Of a stretch of DNA of 64,000 nt, positions 5,027 to 31,025 are shown piece after piece. The translations under genes were made by a program, and so were the position numbers. The first letter of the stretch is position 1; each line of letters opens with the position of its first letter. The notes under the pieces were generated by a model, which saw nothing but the letters and a program-made list of their open reading frames with translations, did no database searches and was not told the DNA's origin. The stretch lies in the NCBI GenBank assembly GCA_000004695.1, contig CM000152.2:224001-288000 (forward strand), read 5' to 3'. This DNA is from Dictyostelium discoideum (lineage: Eukaryota).

Positions 5027-8659
<3,633 letters not shown>

Positions 8660-9484: not shown

Positions 9485-9702
9485 TAAAAAAAAAATAAAA
9501 AAAAAAAAGTTTTCTTTAAAATTGCAAGAGTGGTGATATTATTATTTTTTATTAAAAAAAAAAAAAGTAAAAAAAATAGTAAAAACAAAGAATAAAAAAG
9601 ATAGTTATAATTACAAAAATTAAAAAAAAAAAAAAAAAAAAAGAAACACGCAAATCCTATATAGATAATATAAAAATATATACAAAAAAATAAAAGTATA
9701 AA

Positions 9703-10872
9703 ATGAGTCAACAAACAACAGACTCACCATTATCTCCAAATGAATTATCACAATCTACCAATATTAATAAAAGTATAGAGCAAAACTCACCAAATTATAG
9801 ACTTTTATTCGAATAGTATGTATACTATTCTCTCATTAAATTTTAAATTATGATGAAACAGTTTGGTGTTTCATCATAACACATAATAATAATAATAAAA
9901 ATAAAAAAAGGTACTAATTTCTTTCCTCAAAAATAAACTATTAACACAATTCTAGTAAAAAACTTTCAGATTTAATGATTAGAGGACTATATGTCATACC
10001 CTCATTCAATTCAATTCATGGTAATAATTAAACAAAACAATACTAATAAAAATAATAATAATAAATAAAACTAATATAAATATATTTTTAAATAGAATGG
10101 CATTGTGTATTATTTATTAGAAATAGAATATATAGATCAGCAATTATTAGATTTAATGTAGTTATACCTGACGAGTAAAATATCCACTATATTATATTAA
10201 AAAAAAAAAAAAAAAAAAATTATTGAGAGAATAATAATTAATTAACATACCCCCTCACCCCCCTCACACCAAAAAAAAAAATTTCATTTTAGTTTTCCAG
10301 AATCATGCCCATCTATTAAATTTTTAACACCAATATTTCATCCATTAATTGGGCCAGAAGGAGAAATTGATTTATCACATCAATTCCCTGACTGGTCAGC
10401 AGAAAAGTATATGATTGCACATGTGTTGTGTTATATTAAAAGTATTTTCCATAATCCTGATAAATATGATTTCCCACCTCTAAATACCGATGCCCATAAT
10501 TTGTAAGTAATAGTATTATTTTCACTTTTATTTTACCATTCCTTAAACTTGTTGTAACTAATTAACACTTTAAAACCTCAATAAAAAAAATACAATAAAC
10601 AAATAATAATAATAATAATAATAATATATATAATTAAAAGAATGAAAAATAATCCAGACTCATTCCAAAAAAGAGTTTCTGAATATGTAGAAGATTCTAT
10701 TAAAAATGTTTATGATAATCCCCAAGATAATGCAATTTGTTTTTCAAAGGAATGGAAAGATAAAAATCAATTAGAAAATGCAAAAAAACAAATTTTCAAA
10801 AAAGATGTTGGTTTAATAGATCAATTGTCTGAACTGTATTCAAAATCAAAATTAAAAGACTTATTTAAATAA
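9703..10872 (+). CDS. UEV/AKTIP(FTS)-like ubiquitin-conjugating-enzyme variant, a UBC fold lacking the catalytic Cys. It is a five-exon gene, about 232 aa.
   Basis: Exons: 9703..9815 (donor GTATGT), 9956..10020 (donor GTAATA), 10096..10174 (donor GTAAAA), 10293..10502 (donor GTAAGT) and 10641..10872. All junctions are phase-consistent. The spliced product is MSQQTTDSPLSPNELSQSTNINKSIEQNSPNYRLLFEYKKLSDLMIRGLYVIPSFNSIHGEWHCVLFIRNRIYRSAIIRFNVVIPDEDFPESCPSIKFLTPIFHPLIGPEGEIDLSHQFPDWSAEKYMIAHVLCYIKSIFHNPDKY...MKNNPDSFQKRV... This follows the UBC-fold pattern (RLxxE...W...GP...YP..PP.v.F.t.i.HPxi...G). The HPN...C active-site Cys is absent (HPLIGPEGEIDL), which is the UEV/AKTIP signature. Confidence 0.6.
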
Positions 10873-16470: not shown

Positions 16471-18531
16471 ATGAGAACAATCTCACAAAAACTAATCTTA
16501 TTTTTATCGAAAAATCAAAAACTTAAATATTTCTTTAATACAAGTATTTTATTACTAGTTTTTTATTGGATTTATAAAAATGTTTTAATTAAAAAAAATA
16601 AAAATAAAAATAATAACCATGATGATCATGTCAACCAAAAAATTCAAAATATTCAAGAAAATCAAAAAACCACCACACAAAATATTCAAAATAAAAGAAA
16701 TGAAGATACAACAACAACTAAAAATTATTTTAAATTATCAAATGATATTAAAATTCATGTTTTAAGTACACCAGAAGAATGTGATTTAATTTTAAATGAA
16801 TTTTATCAATCATTATTATTGAAAATGGTTGATGATAAAAATTCACCACCAATGATTGATGGTGCAGACGGTGTAATAATAAATCAACAACAAACAACAA
16901 CAGAATTACTGTTATTCCCAAATTGTAATGAAATAAACAATGATGGTTTAGATTTTATAATTGGTTTTGATGCTGAATGGGGTAATCCAAATAGTATTTT
17001 TGATGATAAAATTGATGATAAAACTACAAAAACACATTATAATCATAAAGTTGCATTAATTCAATTATCAAGTAAAAATGAAACATTTTTAATTCAAGTT
17101 TCACAAATGGAGAAAATTCCAATATCATTGGAACAGATTTTAACAGATCCTCGTTTAATTAAAGTCGGTGTTGCAGTTTCACAAGATGCAGCAACCATTT
17201 TTCAAACATTTTCAGTTGTTACAAAAGGGTATGTTGATTTAGTACCAATTGCAAGATTAACCAATTATGAAGGAAATGGATTAGCAAGTTTAGCATTAAA
17301 CGTTATGAATGTAACATTAAATAAATCTAATAAAATTCGTTGTGGTCATTGGGAGAATAAAAAATTATCAAATGATCAAATTCATTATGCAGCAGCTGAT
17401 GCATGGGTTGGTAGAGAAATATTCGAAATTATGTTCAACACTTATAAAAACTCAAAAACTGATCCAAATGATAAAAAAGATTTAGTTTATACTTTATGTA
17501 GACAATTTACAGGTGCAAGTTTTAAAAGTATAAATAAATTAAAAAATAGAGAAAATAATAATAATGGCAATAATAATGACAATACCAATAATAAACCAAT
17601 TAAAGAAAACATGTTAAAGAAAACTGTACCTGATAAAAGAGTATTATATGATAATTGTTTAATGTATAGTCCTGATGATGTATTATTATCAAGTATTAGT
17701 AAAAAGAAAGTTGAATGGTATGTTAGTAGACAATTGGCAGATATAATTAAAGAAGAACCATTATCAATTAAATTAAAATTCCAACCACATGGTGAAGGTC
17801 ATTCTGGTGACCAATTTTATTTAGCATCAAAAGAGAATATTTGTGTAGTTTGTGGTTCAACTCATAAAATTCTACGTCATTCAATGGTACCACATTGTTA
17901 TCGTCAATATTTACCAGAGGAAATTAAAAGTCATTCATCACATGATGTAATATTAGTTTGTTGTGATTGTCATGCTATTCTAGATAAAAAGAATCAAATT
18001 ATGAAAATGATAATTTCACAACAATACAATGTACCAATTGATAATGAAAATAAACAATTTATAACTGACCATACTTTATTAAAAATTACTCAAATCGCAT
18101 CAATTGTTAAAAATAATTTCTATTCAACAGGAAATAATAATAACATTAGTGAAGATAATTTAATTAAAGGTAATAAAAAATGTAAAAAGAATATTCCAGA
18201 TGAGAAATTAGAAGAAATGAAGAAAATTGTAATGGAATATATTGGAAAGGAAGAGATTAATGTTGAAGATTTAGATGAAATTTTAAAATTAAATCCAAAA
18301 CAAAAGAATGAAAATTATATTCCACATGAAAAAAAAGTTATTGATAAAGTATTGGCAATGGGTGAAAAAGGTATATTTGAATTTATTCGTAGTTGGAGAA
18401 AGAATTTCGTTGAATCAGTTCAACCAAAATTCCTTCCAGAACATTGGTCAATTGATAAAGTTGTTTGTTGTGATAATGGTCATCGTAAACCAAAAGATCA
18501 AAGACAAAAACAAATTCAAAATCAAGAATAA
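16471..18531 (+). CDS. EXD2-like protein, copy 1 (about 686 aa, intronless). It has an N-terminal transmembrane anchor, a DEDDy 3'-5' exonuclease domain, and a C-terminal HNH-like Cys/His zinc module.
   Basis: The real start is ATG at 16471 (MRTISQKLILFLSKNQ...). The track's start at 16381 is a TTG read-through of poly(A). There is a hydrophobic segment ILLLVFYWIY. Exonuclease motifs are LDFIIGFDAEWG (Exo I, D-x-E), HKVALIQLSS (Exo II), and HYAAADAWVGREIF (Exo III, Y-x3-D). The C-terminal module is CVVCGSTHKILRHSMVPHCYRQYLPEEIKSHSSHDVILVCCDCHAILDKK. This architecture (TM anchor, exonuclease, HNH-like) is that of metazoan EXD2. Confidence 0.7.
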   Translation: MRTISQKLILFLSKNQKLKYFFNTSILLLVFYWIYKNVLIKKNKNKNNNHDDHVNQKIQNIQENQKTTTQNIQNKRNEDTTTTKNYFKLSNDIKIHVLSTPEECDLILNEFYQSLLLKMVDDKNSPPMIDGADGVIINQQQTTTELLLFPNCNEINNDGLDFIIGFDAEWGNPNSIFDDKIDDKTTKTHYNHKVALIQLSSKNETFLIQVSQMEKIPISLEQILTDPRLIKVGVAVSQDAATIFQTFSVVTKGYVDLVPIARLTNYEGNGLASLALNVMNVTLNKSNKIRCGHWENKKLSNDQIHYAAADAWVGREIFEIMFNTYKNSKTDPNDKKDLVYTLCRQFTGASFKSINKLKNRENNNNGNNNDNTNNKPIKENMLKKTVPDKRVLYDNCLMYSPDDVLLSSISKKKVEWYVSRQLADIIKEEPLSIKLKFQPHGEGHSGDQFYLASKENICVVCGSTHKILRHSMVPHCYRQYLPEEIKSHSSHDVILVCCDCHAILDKKNQIMKMIISQQYNVPIDNENKQFITDHTLLKITQIASIVKNNFYSTGNNNNISEDNLIKGNKKCKKNIPDEKLEEMKKIVMEYIGKEEINVEDLDEILKLNPKQKNENYIPHEKKVIDKVLAMGEKGIFEFIRSWRKNFVESVQPKFLPEHWSIDKVVCCDNGHRKPKDQRQKQIQNQE

Positions 18532-18963
18532 TTAATTAATTAATTAAATTATAACAATAATAATAATAAAAATAAAAATGTAATAATAGTTTTTTTTAAA
18601 AAAGATTTTATTTATTTTTATTTTTTTTATTTTTCCAACTTTTTTTTTTTTTTTGGGGGAGGGGGTTATATATTTTTAGATTTTTTTTTTTATTTTAGGA
18701 TTTTTTAAAGAATGACGCATCACAAACACACAAACAACCAAACAAAAATAAATTTAAGCTTTCGAATTTCGTTGTTTTTTTAACGAAATTTTGTTTATTT
18801 TTTAGAGGTTGAAAATTTTTTTTCAAAGAATCTTGAAAAGTTATGAAAATTATAAAAAAAAAAAAAAAAAAAAAATTAACGTGCTTTCAGTTATTTATCA
18901 AAAAAAAAATAAATTATTATCATTAATAATATATATTTTAATAACAATAACAATAACAATAAA

Positions 18964-21120
<2,157 letters not shown>

Positions 21121-21511
21121 TAACAATAACAATAATAATAATAGTAATAATAAATTAATTACAATAATAATAATAATAAATTAAAGATCTTTTTTTTTTT
21201 TAATTAATTTAATATAAAAAAAAAAAAAAATAAAAAAAAAAAAAAAAACAAATATCAAGATAAAAATTTTAGTTGTGAACAATAACAACAATAATGATTT
21301 AATACGCTGTTTTTTAACTTATTATTATTATTATAAAAAAAAATAAAAAAAATAAAAAAAAAAGAAAAAAAATAAAAAAAAAGAAAATTTTAAAAGAAGT
21401 TATGGGGTTAACCAATTTCTTTTCCTTATTCTCAATGCCGAAATGCAAAGGAAATTTTTTTTTTTCTTTTTTAAAAAAATATCTTTACCCAAAATGACTT
21501 CAAATTGTTTT

Positions 21512-22849: not shown

Positions 22850-23623
22850 AAAAAACATTAACCACTAAAATAATTATAGGTGCTTATAATTGTAATAAAT
22901 TAAATTGTTCATCAAAAAATACAAAATGTAGAACATTCTCTTGTACTAGTGTTGTTGGATGTTATTATACTGATAAATGCACTAGCCCAGATTTATGCCA
23001 TAATTCTGCTTGTAATGCTTCAACTGGAAATTGTACATTAACTACTATCAGTTGTAATGATAATAACCCTTGTACTGATGATTTTTGCCATCCAGGTTAT
23101 GGTTGTTATAGTGTTCCAAACAGTTGTGATCCAGGTGTAATTTGCCAACAAAATTGTAATGATAATGATCCATGTACATATGATTTCTGTGATGCTTTAA
23201 ATATTTGTCGTCATTCCGAAACCTATTGCAATGATGGTGATGCTTGTACATTAAATACTTGTGGTGTAAATGGTTGTAACTTTACAAAAATATCTTGCGA
23301 TGATAATGGTAAGATATATATATATTTTTGTCTACTCAAATTGTTAACAAAAAAAGAAAATAATAATAACATTTAATTTATTTTATTAAATTTTAGATCC
23401 ATGTACTGCCGATTATTGTTCAACATTATATGGTTGTTATCATGAACCAATCGAATGTTCAATTAAAGTACCATGTAATATTGATTCCGATTGTAATAGA
23501 AATAATGGATGTGAAACTTTTACTTGTAATTTATCAACAAATACCTGTGATTACTATGCTAAAAATTGTGGTGGTTGGCCATGTATTAATAATCAATGTA
23601 CAACTGGTTCAATTTCAAATTAA
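22720..23623 (+). CDS. Secreted cysteine-rich Dicty_CTDC-repeat protein, three exons, about 238 aa.
   Basis: Exon 1 (22720..22777) encodes the signal peptide MAKIIISLILLLSLFSFSY(G); the donor is TATG|GTAAAT. Exon 2 runs 22880..23308 after an ...aattatag acceptor and ends at donor AATG|GTAAGA. Exon 3 runs 23397..23623 after ttttag and ends with stop TAA. The product contains CNDNNPCTDDFC, CNDNDPCTYDFC, CNDGDACTLNTC and CDDNDPCTADYC, which are canonical Dictyostelium C-x-D-x-N/D-x-C-T-x-D-x-C extracellular-matrix repeats (Pfam Dicty_CTDC). It is not in the ORF track because no exon alone makes a 60-aa ORF. Confidence 0.65.
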
Positions 23624-23667
23624 ATATACCTTTACATTTTCATATATTTATTTATATATTTATTTAT

Positions 23668-23705
<38 letters not shown>

Positions 23706-23809
23706 AAATGTTCGAATTCGATTGAAATTTAAGAAATAAAAGGTAGGTGGAAAATTAATATATACTCAAAACAGTTTTATTTATATTTATTATTTTTTTA
23801 AAAATGATC

Positions 23810-25150
23810 ATATTTATTAAAAATTATTATATATTTCTATAAATTATTTAAATTTTTAAATTTTGAATATTCAAATAATAATTCATCAATATCACTAACA
23901 TCTTGAAGAGTTGTTGGAATTATATAGCTTTTATCTATTTGAAATTAAAATATTAATTAGTAAATATAAAAAAAAGATACATTATTTAATAATGAAAATA
24001 AAAATGAAAACATACTATTAAAAATTGAGGTAAATATTGATTTGATTGTTTTCCAAGTTCTTGTTTTTGGTCTAATTATAAACACTTACAATCTTTTAAC
24101 TATTATTTATTTAATATTTGGGAGAGTAGAAAGATTTTTTTTAACTATATTGTTAATTTCATTTTTTAATGAGATAGTATCTATATTTATATTTTCTAGT
24201 ACTAATATTGCAGCAATTTCTTTACCATGAATTTCATCATCTATACCAATAACACAAGATTCAAAAATATTTTGAATTTTTAAAATTAAATTTTCAAGTA
24301 CACCACCATTAACAATATAACTATCATATGAAAATGAATCATCATATCTTGAACAAAAATACCATAAATTATTTTCATAATAACCAATATCTTTTGTTCT
24401 AAAATATCCTTCATATTCATTTAAATATGGTTGCTTATATATTAATCTATCATTAATATCACCCAATAAACGATTACGTACACCAGGTGGAATGGAAACT
24501 TTATAACAATTTCACCTTTTCATTTTCTTTATTTTCAATTACACTAGCTTGATTATTATTGTTGGAGTTGGTGTTGGTGAATAAATATTTAACAGATATG
24601 ATAATCCTTTTTGAGTATAACCACCAAATATTATATTATGTGTTGCACCAATTCTACAACATGATAATGTTGATATAATTAATTTAATACTATTTTGCAT
24701 ATAAATGATTACAATATCACCTTTTTAATACCTAAATTCTTTAATGATCTTAAAATTTACAAACTTTATCAAATAATTGTTTATATGTAATTTGAGTTGA
24801 AATTTGTTTTGATGGTATTTCATGTACAAATGCGATTTCTTCACCTCTACCATTAACAATATGTTTATCTAATGCATTATAACATGCATTTAATAATCCA
24901 CTTGAAAACCATTCATTATTATTACTATTATAAATATTTTCATATTCTTTATCTCTGTAATATAATAATAATAAAACTATTAATAAAATAATAATTAGAA
25001 GCCATACCAATGAACATATTTTTTAGTAACATCATTCCAAAATGATAATTGATCATTTAATCCATACTGGTAATCATTTTCATAATCAAAAGGTTTTGAT
25101 AATTTAAATTGTTGTTTTTTATTATTATTATTGTTAATCATTTTAATAAT
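23810..25150 (-). pseudogene. Truncated, internally deleted duplicate of the downstream acetyl-CoA-synthetase-like gene.
   Basis: Two minus-strand ORFs (24750..25010 and 24107..24466) are about 85-90% identical to the N-terminus (…NEWFSSGLLNACYNALDKHIVNGRGEEIAFVHEIPSKQISTQITYKQLFDKVCKF) and the C-terminus (…GYFRTKDIGYY…VIGIDDEIHGKEIAAILVLEN…) of the 26014..27708 gene. At 24480-24600 the nucleotide alignment jumps from the equivalent of about 26490 to about 27440, so about 950 bp of the AMP-binding core are absent. The same flanking 5' and 3' noncoding blocks are present (compare 23810-24100 with 25690-26060). Confidence 0.6.
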
Positions 25151-25686
25151 TAAATAATTATTTTACATTATTTTGAATTTTTATTAGCTCTATAATAAAT
25201 AAAATAATAGAAAAAAAAAAAAAAAAATTTAACATTATTTATAGGTTGCTGAATAGAGAGTAAAAGTAAAAAAAAGAAATAACCAGTGGTACCAAATAAA
25301 ATTATTTTTCACCACTTTAGTGCTGATATTTTTATATCTGACCAGCCAACCTTAATTCAACACAACAATTTTTTTTTATTTTTCTTTAATTTAATTTATT
25401 GGGGGAGAGTTGTTCAAAAAAAAATAAAGGGTGGCAAACTCAGCAGCTCCACATAAAATTACTTTCCACCACTTTGATGTTGATTTTTTCATATCTGGCT
25501 TTTTAATAAAAAATAATTTATTTCAACAACAAATTTTTTTTTTTTCTTCAAGAATAAATCGCAAACAGTTTTATTTATAATTATTATTTTTTAATAGTTA
25601 TTATATTTATTCATTTTAACGTTTATTTCTTTTGATCCCCCAGAATAGGAGAGAGATGGAGAGTTTGTGAAAATTACTATAAATTT

Positions 25687-28038
25687 CTATATATCATTGG
25701 AATTTTTAAATTTTGAATATTCAATTAATAATTCATCAATAACAATATCATCTTGAAGAGTTGGCGGAATTATATAGGATTTATCTATTTGAAGTAAAAA
25801 TATTAATATAATTTTAATAATAGATACAGTTAATAAAAATAACAATAATAAAAATAAAAATGAATTCATACTATTAAAAATTGATGTTAATAATGATTTA
25901 ATTCTTTTCCCAGTTCTTGTTTTTGGTCTAATATTAAAAATAATAATTTAGTTAATATAATTGCTTTTATTGTTATTATTATTATCGAAGATTATTATTT
26001 TAATTATAAACACTTACAATCTTTTAACTATTATTATATATTTAATATTTATGCAAGTAAAAAGATTAGTTTTAACTATATTATTAATTTCATTTTTTAA
26101 TGAGATAGTATCTATATTTTTATTTTCTAGTACTAATATTGCAGCAATTTCTTGACCATGGATTTCATCATCTATACCAATAACACAAGATTCAGAAATA
26201 TTTTGAATTTTTAGAATTAAATTTTCAAGTACACCACTATTAACAATAACACTACCATATGAAATTGAATCATCAGATCTTGAACTAAAATACCATACTT
26301 TATTTTCATCAAAATAACCAATATCTTTTGTTCTAAAATATCCTTCAAACTCATTTAAATAATGTTGCTTATATAATAATCTATCATTAGTATCACCAAA
26401 TAAACAATTACATAAACCAGGTGGTAATGGAAACTTTATAACAATTTCACCTTTTTCATTTTCTTTATTTTCAATTACACTAGTTTGATTATTATTGTTG
26501 ATTTTTGAAACTATTTTAATATTATAACCAGGTGCAACTTTACCAATAGCATCAACACTACAATTTTTTAAATTTAAATCATTTTCAGTTGAATTATAAA
26601 TCATTGGAAATCCAGATTCAGTTTGCCAATAATCAATTATTATTGATAATTTTAAAGTATTGGTTAAATAATTTATTGTCTTTTCATAAACTTTTTCAGA
26701 ACCAATTGATACATGTTTTAAATGTTTTAAATTAAATTGAAATCTAATTTCACCATTTGGGTCAACCATTTTTATTAAATTCATTTGGTGTGGTGTTGTT
26801 GGGAATACATTAACATTATACTTTTCAATTAAACTCCAAAACATTCTAACTTTTTCAGTATCATTATCATTTTCATTTAATGGACCTTCAATAAAAACTG
26901 ATTTACAGCCAGAAAATAAGCAACCATAAAGCAATGTACTATGACCACTAACCCAACCAATTGAGCTTAAACTTAAATAAGTATCACCCTTATTTAATTT
27001 AAATATATTTTTAACTGAATAACAAAGTGATGCAATATGACCAGCTGTTTCTCTAACAATTGCTTTTGGTTTACTTGTTGTACCACTGGTATTCATAACA
27101 TAAATTGGATGATTTGATTCAACTAATTCATACTCTAATAATGGTTCAATATCACCACCATTAACTAAATCATTCCAATCAAAAATATTAAAATTATGAT
27201 TATTATTTTGATTATTATTATTATTGTTCTTATTATTACCATTATTATTATAATCATTTCTATTGAATAAAATTATATTTTTTAAATTTAAATTTGAATT
27301 TATTAATGATTCTATTATTTCTTTATAAAAATAATATATATCATTATTTAATAAACCATAGTTTGAAGTAATTATTAGTTTTGGTGATTGATTGAAATTT
27401 GGTGTTGGTGTTGGTGTTGGTGTTGGTGTTGGTGTTGGTGTTGGTGTTGGTGTTGGTGAATAAATATTTAACAAATCAGTTAGTCCTTTTTGAGTATAAC
27501 CACCAAATATTATATTATGTGTTGCACCAATTCTACAACATGATAATGCTGATATAATTAATTCAATACTATTATGCATATAAATTATTACAATATCACC
27601 TTTTTTAATACCCAAATTCTTTAATGATCTTGAAAATTTACAAACTTTATCAAATAATTGTTTATATGTAATTTGAGTTGAAATTTGTTTTGATGGTATT
27701 TCATGCACAAATGCAATTTCTTCACCTCCACCATTAACAATATGTTTATCTAATGCATTATAACATGCATTTAATAATCCACCTGAAAACCATTCATTAT
27801 TATTACTATTATAAATATTTTCATATTCTTTGTCCCTATAGTATAATATTAATAATTACTATTATTTTAATTATAATATTAATATTATATATTATTAATT
27901 TAACATCATACATACCAATGAACATATTTTTTAGCAACATCATTCCAAAATGAAAATTGATCATTTAACCCATACTGGTAATCATTTTCATAATTAAAAG
28001 GTTCTGATAATTTATATTGTTGTTTATTATTATTATTA

Positions 28039-28096
<58 letters not shown>

Positions 28097-28103
28097 CTAT
28101 CAT
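25687..28103 (-). CDS. Acetyl-CoA-synthetase-like (ACSS / AMP-forming acyl-CoA synthetase) protein with poly-N and (TP)11 inserts. There are at least 2 exons, and a small 3' exon is possible.
   Basis: Exon 1 (28103..27916) encodes MIDNNN...KQQYKLSEPFNYENDYQYGLNDQFSFWNDVAKKYVHW, the ACS N-terminal-domain motif. The donor is CATTG|GTATGT, the intron (27915..27836) is 80 nt, and the acceptor is tatactatag. Exon 2 (27835..26014) continues DKEYENIYNSNNNEWFSGGLLNACYNALDKHIVNGGGEEIAFVHEIPSKQISTQITY...KGDIVIIYMHNSIELIISALSCCRIGATHNIIFGGY...MNTSGTTSKPKAIVRETAGH...YWQTESG...GYFRTKDIGYFDENKVWYFSSRSDD...VIGIDDEIHGQEIAAILVL. These are the core AMP-binding motifs. A conserved GTAAGT at 26014-26019 and an in-phase acceptor tttttaatag|TATG suggest a possible short last exon (about 25866..25687) that would supply the A10-like IIPPTL segment. 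That exon is uncertain. Confidence 0.7.
27402..27468. repeat. (GGTGTT)11 hexanucleotide repeat encoding a (TP)11 tract in the ACS-like protein on the minus strand
   Basis: The run ggtgttggtgttggtgtt... is read directly. It is in frame with TPTPTPTP in the 564-aa ORF. The pseudogene copy carries only about 2 units. Confidence 0.85.
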
Positions 28104-28380
28104 TTTATTAACTATCCAATAATAGTGATTTTATACATATATTATTTTGAATTTCTATTATTTGTGTGTTTATAATTTAAAATAATTAAAAGTAAAAAAA
28201 AAAAAAAAAAATAATAAAAATTTAACACAACAAATCTGTTTTTTTTGTTGTGTTAAATTTTTATTATTTTTTTTTTTTTTATTTCTTTTAATTTTTTAAT
28301 AAATAAAAAAGGATATATATTTTTTTTTTTTTTTTTTTTTTTATATTTATAAATGTAATAAAATTTTATTTAAATATATT

Positions 28381-31025
28381 TTAATTTCTAAAATCTCTAA
28401 TTTCATTAATAATTTCATTTGCTTTTCTTAAAATTTCGATCATAGCTTTACAAGATTTTCTCTTACTAGAGATTTGTGGTGATTCCTCTAATAATTCATC
28501 AAACAATTCCTCTTTGTAGAGGGCTGCAACCAATTCATTTTGAATGTGTTCTTTTGATTGATTGACCAAGAAATGCATAATTGATTTTGGAACTGAATCC
28601 TTAACATTCTTTTTAACGATATTAAAATAGGAAATTAAAAGTTCACGAATTAATTCAGTTTCAAATTTCTCTTTACTTGTTAAATCATCTGGTGCTTTAA
28701 TAATTGATGGTACTTGATTTAATTTATCACCTCTACCATAGAAATCATCTTGATAACGATTATAACTACTATTATTGCTGCTACTATTATTATTATTATT
28801 ATAACTAGTTTTATATTGTGATTGTGATGATTGTTGTAATTGTTGTGATGATGAAGATGATGATTGTTGACCACCAAAAGTATTATAATTATTACCGCTA
28901 TTACTACTTGAATTAATTGGTGATGTTGGATTATTTGAATTATTACTATTATTAGCACCACCATATTGACCTAAAGATGGATCAGGTGAAGCTCTGAAAA
29001 AAGATGAAAAGAAAGAACCTTGTTGATGATCTTGTCTATTATTATTATTGTTATTATTATTATTATTGTTTGGACCATTTTGTGGGATTGAACTTGGTTT
29101 AGATTGATTTGGAGGCATATTTTGTGGACCTTTATTAAGTTGATTTGGTTGTTGATTTGGTTGTTGTTGAGCTGGTGGACCACCTGGATATTTATTTTGA
29201 CCTTGTTGTTGTTGTTGTAAGAATGGATTTGTACTTTGATTTTGTTGATTCATATTTTGTTGATTCATATTTTGTTGATTTACATTCATATTACCATTAT
29301 CACCCTTTTGATTATTATTGATACCATTTTGTTGTTGTTGTTGTTGTTGTTGCTGTTGTTGTTGTTGATATTGATCTTGTAATTGTTGAAGATGATTTTG
29401 TTGTTGGAGTTGTTGTTTTTTATATAATGATTCAAAGATACCTTCACCACCTACAAAATCTGGATGAGAAGTATTGATGAAAGCTGTTTCAATTTTTATG
29501 AGATGTTCAATCATTGTTTTGGTTGGTACTTTATGTTTTTGAAGAAGATTATTGACCACTTCGATTACTCTAGCTTTGAGATTAATGAAACGTGACAATT
29601 CCTTAGCCTCCAATTGTGAGACGATTCTTTGAAGTTCATCATAGACATATTCAACACATTGAGCACTTGGTTCCTCCAAACGAACGACTTGTTTCTTTAC
29701 CAAGAGTTCAAAGGAGATTTCAGGAATGAAGAGGGCAGCTCTTGGACCTGTAGCATTACGCATGGTGGTTCTAATATCGTTGAGAGAAATGCCTTCCAAA
29801 GGATCGATATTATTGACACAATGAGAGTAGATCTCATTGAAAATATAAGAGATACGAGCACCACCATAGAGTTCATTATTGGAGAGATCGGTGAGTTTAC
29901 CATCGATGGCATCTTTGAAATTGCTACTAAAGATAGTGATAATTTGTAAGAGGAGGGCGCCTTGGCTATTCTTTGTATCGTATAAAGGGTCGCCATAGGT
30001 AGACAATTCACCTTGGACATCGGATAACATTTTACTGACCTTTACCTTTAGGTCTGGGAGGGTGTCTCTAATGTGAAACATTAATAATTTATTGAGAGTT
30101 TTCGAGAGGTAGGCTGTACCTGAACGATTGGCAATTGATTTATAGATTGGATGATTCTTAAAGTAGAGTATCTCACTCTTTAATGACTCTCTAATGGATT
30201 TCTTTGCAATGATATCCTCCTGACTACGATTGATGACACCAATGAAACCCAATGTCAATGGAATGACACGACCGGTCAACACCTCCATAGCGTCGGTACC
30301 TTTATCCATTAAATCCAATTTAGTGATGACACCAATGGTTCTCTTACCCTCTGGATCCACCTCTTTAGCCAATTGCAAGGCATCAGAATTTGCTAAATCA
30401 GTATTTGCTGGTGTCACTGCAACGATAATAGCATTTTGTTTCTTTATGTAGGCCATTACCATTCTACGAATTTGTTGTTCAATATCAGTAGGTTGATCAC
30501 CAACTGGTACCTTGGTTATACCTGGTAAATCCACCAATGTCAAGTTTACAACATGTGGTGAATAGATCTTTAAATTGATTGGTTGTGCTGAAATACCTTT
30601 ATTCTTACCTGTCATTCTATCAGTATCACGTATAATCTCTTCTCTAATCTCTGAGAAATCATAAAACATATCATTTGGTTTATGTAAAAATTCACCCCAT
30701 TCTTGAGTTTGTGATCCTTTAATTTTATAATAATAATAATAAATAAATAATAATTAGTATTTTATAAATATATATATAATATATATAAAAATTACATACC
30801 ATCATCAGCAATTGGTAAATGAGTTAATTGTAAAATCAAAGGTCTTCTTGTTACAATACCAGAACCTCTTGGTAAAAAATCACGACCTACTATATTTTCA
30901 AGTACACTACTTTTACCTGAAGATTGACTACCAACAACAACGATTTGTGGTAAATCCAATGGGTCTGATCCTAATGTATTAAATACATCTTGAAGTTTAT
31001 TAATAACTGGGATTAATTGATCCAT
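28381..31025 (-). CDS. dymA: Dynamin A, a large GTPase with a QNS-rich insert. Two exons, spliced product 853 aa.
   Basis: Exon 1 (31025..30800) encodes [75 protein letters not shown], the dynamin P-loop. The donor is GATG|GTATGT, the intron (30799..30717) is 83 nt, and the acceptor is ttaaag. Exon 2 (30716..28381) encodes [28 protein letters not shown]...[16 protein letters not shown]...[11 protein letters not shown]..., the middle domain, and a 170-aa Q/N/S-rich low-complexity region before the GED. Total length is 226+2336 nt, giving 853 codons. Confidence 0.9.

Follow-up and report, generated by a model that had tools for sequence, protein, structure and literature searches.

The locus at 23837-25141 of the window, the whole stretch of 64,000 nucleotides of Dictyostelium discoideum DNA that was analysed, appears from its sequence affinities to be the fused remnant of two members, B and C, of a tandem array of acyl-CoA-synthetase-like genes, and not a broken copy of the intact gene beside it, which is the orthologue of array member A. 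An apparent internally deleted copy in a tandem array can thus be the fused stump of two paralogues, and a B::C-type fusion of this kind is revealed only by comparison with related genomes. In annotation, the locus is best entered as a pseudogene with two parent members of the array; "truncated paralogue" would be the wrong label.

The intact gene (copy 2) has the following layout:

25687 to 28103, minus strand: copy 2, orthologue of array member A, intact, 719 amino acids
28103-27916, 27835-26018, 25927-25872 and 25784-25687, minus strand: the four exons of copy 2

The introns of this gene model are of the GT..AG type, with lengths of 80, 90 and 87 nt and a GC content of 9-12%, and the reading frame, when checked, contained no frameshift and no in-frame stop. 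The protein carries the Pfam domains ACAS_N (45.4 bits), AMP-binding (173.1 bits), and AMP-binding_C (52.7 bits), each scoring over its gathering cut-off, an architecture that assigns the predicted product to the short-chain acyl-CoA-synthetase-like proteins (ACS/PrpE type) of the ANL superfamily. The best structural match is PDB 5gxd_A, entitled "AMP-dependent synthetase and ligase" (E = 4e-91), which aligns end to end, whereas the Salmonella Acs structures 1pg3/1pg4 are more distant. Copy 2 resembles the PrpE and ACSS3-type synthetases, in that the motifs TSGTT-KPK, WQTE(S/T)G, and PKTR(S/T)GK are recognisable; the lysine motif PKTRTGK and WQTESG are present. The alignment to 5gxd also reveals G>S and G>A changes in the P-loop (TSGTTSKPKA versus TSGTTGQPKG), FRTKD in place of YETGD (TGD to TKD), and a hinge region with GSV where GHR would stand. 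Low-complexity N-rich and TP inserts are also found in the protein.

The second locus (copy 1) was compared with this gene by BLASTN (23500-25500 against 25500-28500), which recovered 23820-25186 as collinear with 25670-28095 at 84-92% identity, in three blocks:

23820-24076 against 25670-25932: block 1, 84.2% identity, E = 9e-69
24073-24564 against 26001-26500: block 2, 91.8% identity, E = 0
24560-25186 against 27439-28095: block 3, 88.8% identity, E = 0
26501 to 27438, minus strand: segment missing from copy 1, holding the AMP-binding core, with CAACA on either side

The collinearity and the skip of ~950 bp described in the original prediction are thus both seen, the skip corresponding to ~940 bp of copy 2 that copy 1 lacks, as a global alignment confirms. 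Blocks 2 and 3 overlap at the joint by 5 nt (CAACA, 24564-24560). The P-loop TSGTTSKPK (~27090-27064) and YWQTESG (26631-26611) both lie inside the missing segment, which bears out the reported loss of the AMP-binding core, and a tBLASTN search of the whole 64-kb window with the copy 2 protein matched these two loci only, with no relocated core in copy 1 or elsewhere in the window. The genes are all on the minus strand, so that the truncated copy, which had been described as the upstream one, is in fact downstream of the intact copy in the orientation of the genes. Collinear noncoding blocks had been proposed at both ends: the 3' block is real (23769-23839 against 25563-25686, interrupted by a 54-bp indel), but at the 5' end there is only a short AT-rich block, and the 150 bp upstream of the two copies are 57% identical in a MAFFT alignment.

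The remnant itself is organised as follows:

24565 to 25141, minus strand: B-derived 5' part, from the ATG at 25141 up to the TP repeat in exon 2
25141 to 25008, minus strand: exon 1
25007 to 24955, minus strand: intron 1 (53 nt)
24560 to 24564, minus strand: deletion joint CAACA, where B type changes to C type, out of register and out of frame
23837 to 24559, minus strand: C-derived 3' part, comprising the end of exon 2, intron 2, exon 3, intron 3, and exon 4
24089 to 24072, minus strand: intron 2, reduced to 18 nt by a 72-bp loss
23769 to 23836, minus strand: C-type 3' UTR block, with the same layout as the C 3' UTRs of L001 and L002 (see below)

The introns of the remnant, of 53, 18, and 81 nt, occupy the same three positions as in copy 2, the second being too short to be spliced. 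The joint fuses ~codon 205 to ~codon 515 in the numbering of the copy 2 protein, positions ~310 codons apart. Lesions are found on both sides of this joint. In the 5' part, a TGA spans the exon 1/2 junction (25009, 25008, and 24954), a 1-bp deletion creates a TAA at ~24752-24750, and a further 1-bp deletion lies at ~24726. The 3' part has 1-bp deletions at ~24520 and ~24490, which bring the total in the remnant to four, and a TAA at 24109-24107, six codons ahead of the end of exon 2. The stop reported one codon early in copy 1 resulted from reading the splice donor of copy 2, GTAAGT, as a stop codon; the true stops occupy homologous positions (25689-25687 in copy 2 and 23839-23837 in the remnant).

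The longest open reading frame left in the remnant is 119 amino acids, and the domains still recognisable are ACAS_N (44 bits) and part of AMP-binding_C (30 bits); only the first ~40 residues of AMP-binding remain, at 16 bits, below the cut-off, and the core itself is absent. The dN/dS ratio is 0.5-1.2, as against 0.15-0.5 among the A orthologues, and over the same alignment columns the remnant has 37 private changes and copy 2 has 24. By these measures the remnant has changed at about 1.5 times the rate of copy 2, with constraint relaxed. The lesions, together with the retained intron positions, support the view that copy 1 is a pseudogene without the AMP-binding core, in tandem with an intact copy, and it would be a dead, non-processed pseudogene of the acyl-CoA-synthetase-like family that has presumably lost its function.

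The comparison that separates B from C was based on two related assemblies labelled D. discoideum, which are ~89-93% identical to the window at this locus (loci L001 and L002). These genomes are 7-11% diverged from the lineage of the window, and no closer relative was found. The window's own proteins are missing from the protein collection searched, where their best hits reach 80-84% identity; the dynamin A part matches the D. discoideum construct of PDB 1jwy at 225/225 residues, but DymA is too conserved to tell close species apart. In both assemblies, the interval from dymA to a Dicty_CTDC gene holds A, B, and C as three full-length genes in tandem, with a repeat unit of ~3.0-3.1 kb. A single HSP aligns 33964-25003 of the window with 1093-10136 of L001, a stretch that passes through A and the spacer into the first part of B, while 24082-19384 aligns with 15282-19991 of L001 at 93% identity, covering the end of C and the flank. 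By contrast, a single copy is present in each of two D. citrinum strains and no copy in D. firmibasis, and D. dimigraforme shows nothing more than a faint trace.

Copy A is intact in the window, L001, and L002, whereas B and C of L001 and L002 bear independent lesions, and no lesion is shared among the three genomes. These stops and frameshifts were called from the assemblies GCA_054859355.1 and GCA_054859385.1 and depend on their quality, chiefly in the case of the C copy of L001, which has indels only. The gene models that splice around the stops in B and C of L001 and L002 are probably pseudogenes too. Only A has been maintained, and B and C have decayed independently in each lineage examined, which is birth-and-death evolution. 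The dS values are 0.14-0.20 between paralogues and 0.05-0.16 between orthologues, placing the A, B, and C lineages before the split of the window from L001 and L002, so that copy 1 is not the young duplicate it had been taken for. An exact-sequence search for other strains with this deletion, made with five open reading frames of the window, including the one that spans the joint, matched nothing in the collection, and a literature search for the gene family, the pseudogene, or the new assemblies found nothing.

The two sides of the remnant have different affinities. The upstream spacer, exon 1, intron 1, and the 5' coding part cluster with B in neighbour-joining (NJ) trees with a bootstrap of 99.7%, which falls to 74% when only coding sequence is used; the assignment leans in part on the alignment of the AT-rich upstream region and intron, but is also borne out by the collinearity in BLAST and by the spacer with its two elements. 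The identity of the 5' part to B is 94.2/93.3%, and that of the upstream region is 79-80%, versus 56-62% to the other copies. The 3' part clusters with C (NJ bootstrap 100%), and the 3' UTR and downstream flank are also of the C type. Its identity is 92.6/93.3% to C, ~90% to A, and 87% to B, and at the diagnostic sites it has 18 of 24 C-specific bases, none of the 24 specific to B, and 1 of the 14 specific to A. The B-specific bases run as far as 24598, and there are none from 24564 on. Copy 2, for its part, joins the A copies of L001 and L002 with 98-99% bootstrap. With B on the 5' side and C on the 3' side, the missing DNA begins in the TP repeat of B, ends in the distal part of C, and amounts to ~4.0 kb (4002 bp relative to L001 and 4018 bp relative to L002), and the reading of copy 1 as a duplicate of copy 2 from which 950 bp had been removed no longer holds. 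In the 3' part, B falls outside the clade of the three A copies, and in the 5' part C falls outside the clade of the remnant and B, which implies that the 3' end of B and the 5' end of C both predate the split of the lineages. Gene conversion between copy 2 and the remnant was also considered as a reason for their similarity and rejected, as the two share only four sites exclusively, of which two carry the ancestral base as judged from D. citrinum.

An ancestor with three genes, followed by a loss of ~4.0 kb from B to C, very probably gave rise to the remnant. The array of A, B, and C, as PrpE/ACS-like genes of the common ancestor, would have been built by tandem duplication once the D. citrinum lineage had branched off. 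In the lineage of the window, we infer a single deletion of ~4.0 kb, which would have begun in the TP repeat of B and ended ~310 codons further along in C, taking with it the last two-thirds of B, the spacer between B and C, and the first two-thirds of C. What was left of the two genes would then have been joined in neither register nor frame, with a microhomology of at most 5 nt, which points to end joining or replication slippage instead of homologous unequal crossing-over. The main competitor, possible but distinctly less likely, is a sequence of two events, in which non-allelic homologous recombination (NAHR) between B and C in register dropped one unit of 3.0-3.1 kb, leaving a full-length hybrid that later lost ~0.94 kb internally, over the crossover point. 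Such recombination is frequent between tandem genes of 88-94% identity, and the global aligner does split the gap into ~3.0-3.1 kb and 0.9-1.0 kb; given that the deleted core is ~39% of the gene, its containing the crossover point is not unlikely. This route nevertheless requires two events where one suffices, and the switch from B to C (24598/24564) coincides with the deletion joint.

It is much less probable that the ancestor had two genes, with copy 1 arising as a recent duplicate of copy 2 that lost ~940 bp internally, and with the third copy of L001 and L002 formed later, for example by unequal crossing-over between A and X, the counterpart of copy 1, to give A-[X5'/A3']-X. The window by itself shows exactly such a pattern, and B does cluster weakly with A in the 3' part (48-55% bootstrap). 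Copy 2 and the A copies of L001 and L002 nonetheless exclude B with a bootstrap of 90-99% for the 3' part and of 74% for the core, which makes the 3' end of B older than the species split, and the 5' part of the remnant is nearer to B than C is (99.7%), which makes the 5' end of C older as well. The remnant is, moreover, never sister to copy 2 (0-12% bootstrap), and the sites exclusive to this pair are as few as noted above. Least probable of all is a false B/C junction produced by collapse of the array in the assembly of the window. Tandem repeats that are 88-94% identical are prone to this error, but it would join homologous positions in register, whereas here the joined codons are far apart, and real decay is what produces the numerous private lesions that flank the joint and the shortened intron 2.

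The deletion fusion of B and C has parallels among other tandem paralogues, such as the delta-beta fusion of haemoglobin Lepore, the CYP21A1P/CYP21A2 chimeras, and the red/green opsin hybrids. Lepore-type fusions arise by homologous unequal crossing-over in register, which yields full-length hybrid genes. The remnant is like them in combining the 5' end of the upstream gene with the 3' end of the downstream gene, with the intergenic DNA gone, and unlike them in its out-of-register, out-of-frame joint with minimal microhomology, a configuration that would leave its product dead. In other respects it is an ordinary pseudogene of a tandem array, produced by ordinary gene birth and death. As in other non-processed pseudogenes of such arrays, a functional paralogue lies adjacent, the introns and flanks are kept, stops and frameshifts are present, and dN/dS is relaxed; as in birth-and-death families, other members of the array decay independently in sister lineages. 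It differs from the typical array pseudogene in that two members are fused, which gives it the look of one gene that has been deleted internally. The locus is a small example of fast turnover in Dictyostelium, from none to one to three copies, and then to one intact copy and a stump.

The intergenic region next to the remnant is conserved:

25142 to 25686, no strand: A-B intergenic spacer, collinear with the A-B spacer of L001 and L002

It contains two instances of a conserved 49-nt element (25292-25340 and 25449-25497), which are relatively GC-rich; as candidate RNA genes, these repeats had no Rfam match at E <= 1 and no tRNA. It is conceivable, but highly improbable, that the triplication was a recent, possibly adaptive amplification of dosage in the D. 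discoideum complex, now being dismantled lineage by lineage, and that the stump, which has kept the promoter region of B and the 49-nt elements, is transcribed and could regulate A as a non-coding or small RNA.

The joint also bears on the TP repeat:

27400 to 27459, minus strand: SP(TP)9 hexanucleotide repeat (ACACCA)n of copy 2, whose length differs among A orthologues

The tract was originally given as (TP)11, and its difference from copy 1 was taken as a sign of expansion or contraction after duplication. Copy 1 retains SPTPTPT because the breakpoint lies in the repeat, or at its end, and the comparison between the two copies of the window is confounded for this reason. The instability of the repeat is nevertheless evident within the A lineage, where the window has SP(TP)9, L002 has 11 units, L001 has three, and D. 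citrinum has none.

The window has an A+T content of 77%, and its genes typically carry short, AT-rich introns. The order in gene orientation is dynamin A (dymA), an intact acetyl-CoA-synthetase-like gene (copy 2), its truncated neighbour (copy 1), and a Dicty_CTDC gene. The main exon of dynamin A is at 28381-30669 on the minus strand, and the first 225 residues match the D. discoideum DymA construct of PDB 1jwy without a difference, which identifies the source as Dictyostelium, most probably the reference lineage of D. discoideum. Copies 1 and 2 are both on the minus strand. In the gene model, the exons of copy 2 are separated by introns of 80, 90, and 87 nt, all GT..AG:

28103-27916, minus strand, exon 1 of copy 2
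27835-26018, minus strand, exon 2 of copy 2
25927-25872, minus strand, exon 3 of copy 2
25784-25687, minus strand, exon 4 of copy 2

The 719-aa product contains the ACAS_N, AMP-binding, and AMP-binding_C domains, and its closest solved structure is 5gxd_A (E = 4e-91). In the protein search, in which the word prefilter may bias the list, the best non-dictyostelid matches were all bacterial (29-33% identity), mainly Flavobacterium "acetate-CoA ligase / propionyl-CoA synthetase". There are at least seven paralogues in D. purpureum, and core motifs are altered in the family (TKD for TGD, GSV for GHR), pointing to a lineage-specific expansion whose chemistry has changed and whose origin may be bacterial.

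The tandem copies are collinear, as originally predicted, and both BLASTN and global alignment recover three blocks (BLASTN E-values of 9e-69 to 0), that is, 23820-24076 against 25670-25932 (84% identity), 24073-24564 against 26001-26500 (92%), and 24560-25186 against 27439-28095 (89%). The stretch 26501-27438 of copy 2, with CAACA at both edges, has no partner in copy 1, and contains the P-loop and YWQTESG motifs of the AMP-binding core that had been reported missing; no relocated core was found within the 64-kb window. Some details require correction, given that the copy 2 repeat is SP(TP)9 rather than (TP)11, and the similarity claimed for the 5' non-coding region is weak. The stop described as one codon early is a TAA six codons ahead of the exon 2 splice donor, which had itself been misread as a stop. 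The lesions of copy 1 are:

25009, 25008 and 24954, minus strand, TGG to TGA in a codon that intron 1 interrupts
~24751, minus strand, 1-bp deletion creating a TAA
~24726, ~24520 and ~24490, minus strand, 1-bp deletions
24109-24107, minus strand, TAA
24089-24072, minus strand, intron 2, shrunk to 18 nt

The gap also breaks the reading frame, no ORF exceeds 119 aa, and the only domains still detectable are ACAS_N and fragments of both AMP-binding domains. Lacking the catalytic core, copy 1 reads by its sequence as a non-processed and presumably dead pseudogene; the original prediction had likewise called it a pseudogene.

The comparison with other genomes that had been called for leads to a different history of this pseudogene, which had been described as a copy of the adjacent gene, shortened by an internal deletion of ~950 bp. 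The protein search recovered two proteins, labelled as D. discoideum, that share 80-84% identity with copy 2. Their contigs (loci L001 and L002) show synteny with the window (nucleotide identity 89-93%), and each has three full-length genes in tandem, A, B, and C, between dymA and the Dicty_CTDC gene. A single HSP (33964-25003 against L001 1093-10136) runs from upstream of dymA through A and the A-B spacer into exon 1 of B, and a second match (24082-19384 against L001 15282-19991, 93% identity) covers the terminal part of C and continues into the flank beyond it. In a nine-sequence MAFFT alignment, the upstream region, intron 1, and GLxYLL codons of copy 1 are of B type, and its distal exon 2, exon 4, and 3' UTR are of C type. 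Identity of the 5' part to B is 94.2/93.3%, and that of the upstream region 79-80%, versus 56-62% to A and C; for the 3' part, identity is highest to C (92.6/93.3%), versus ~90% to A and 87% to B, with 18 of 24 C-specific, none of 24 B-specific, and one of 14 A-specific diagnostic bases. Neighbour-joining (NJ) trees, with the single D. citrinum gene as root and 1000 bootstraps, group the 5' part with B (99.7%; 74% with the coding sequence only), the 3' part with C (100%), and copy 2 with A (98-99%). The B-specific bases end at 24598, with none from 24564 onwards, so the switch from B to C falls at the joint (24560-24564, CAACA). The window lacks 4002 bp relative to L001 and 4018 bp relative to L002, and copy 1 is thus best read as the fused stump of B and C after a loss of ~4 kb.

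The joint ties approximately codon 205 of B to approximately codon 515 of C, with a microhomology of at most 5 nt, and the simplest route to it would be one microhomology-mediated or non-homologous deletion. An in-register crossover between B and C, followed by a 0.94-kb deletion covering the crossover point, is a rather unlikely two-step route to the same structure. It is very improbable that the third copy arose only in the lineage of L001 and L002, by unequal crossing-over between A and copy 1, for example, which predicts that the 3' part of B is nested with the A copies of L001 and L002 in the A clade, and that the 5' part of C is sister to that of B. Copy 2 and these A copies instead exclude B (bootstrap 90-99% in the 3' part, 74% in the core), and the 5' part of copy 1 is nearer to B than C is, which argues that all three lineages are older than the split, and that the window lineage lost the 3' part of B and the 5' part of C. 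The "young duplicate" of the original prediction thus gives way to lineages that all predate this split, with a paralogue dS (0.14-0.20) only slightly greater than that of the orthologues (0.05-0.16).

The decay of the array extends to L001 and L002. Copy A remains intact in each of the three genomes, and the B and C lesions, none of which is common to another genome or to copy 1, are:

B of L001, one TAA
B of L002, a 1-bp deletion and one TAA
C of L001, three frameshifting deletions
C of L002, two TAA

The annotated B and C models (L001 10001-12454 and 13153-15536; L002 10001-12360 and 13063-15455) encode "hypothetical proteins" (P0001, 675 aa; P0002, 611 aa; further products of 630 and 638 aa), and seem to be pseudogenes whose models skip in-frame stops or frameshifts. 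The dN/dS is 0.5-1.2 between copy 1 and its orthologues, and 0.15-0.5 among the A orthologues; over the same columns, private substitutions number 37 in copy 1 and 24 in copy 2, and only four sites hint at exchange between the two copies. One intact copy lies at the locus in each of the two D. citrinum strains, D. dimigraforme retains only a faint trace, and no copy was found in D. firmibasis. Absent from the locus in D. firmibasis and single in D. citrinum, the gene was tripled shortly before the window lineage diverged from L001 and L002. The array is now shrinking to one gene, in classical birth-and-death evolution, and copy 1 is an ordinary product of a fast-evolving tandem array.

Over the whole 22-kb loci, assemblies GCA_054859355.1 and GCA_054859385.1, both labelled as D. 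discoideum, show a nucleotide divergence of 7-11% from the window; between the two of them it is 3-4% in this region. If the window represents the reference strain, this is far above the expectation for a single species, and L001 and L002 may belong to cryptic species within the D. discoideum complex.

A conserved element of ~49 nt (CCAMATAAAATTAYTTTYCACCACTTTRRTGYTGAT...ATATCTG), relatively GC-rich for the genome, is found at 25292-25340 and 25449-25497 in the window, at 9669-9860 and 12903-12956 in L001, and at 9638-9853 and 12837-12889 in L002, with two per A-B spacer in all three genomes and one per B-C spacer in L001 and L002. It was not found in D. citrinum or the rest of the window and matches neither Rfam nor a tRNA; it could serve B and C as a promoter element, or encode a small RNA that has escaped annotation. 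The coding microsatellites (28040-28100 and 27400-27459; L002 ~6830-7060) are very unstable between orthologues, with 0 to 11 TP units, and the N-terminal poly-Asn tract, (AAT)n, is far longer in copy 2 and the A copies of L001 and L002 than in B or C. Another tandem duplication (16850-18588 against 19436-21178; 88.6% identity over 1.29 kb, 78.8% over 0.42 kb) comprises adjacent genes of ~700 aa each, one annotated with a DNA_pol_A_exo1 (3'-5' exonuclease) domain. D. citrinum and D. firmibasis also have both genes, which places this duplication before the acetyl-CoA-synthetase-like array.
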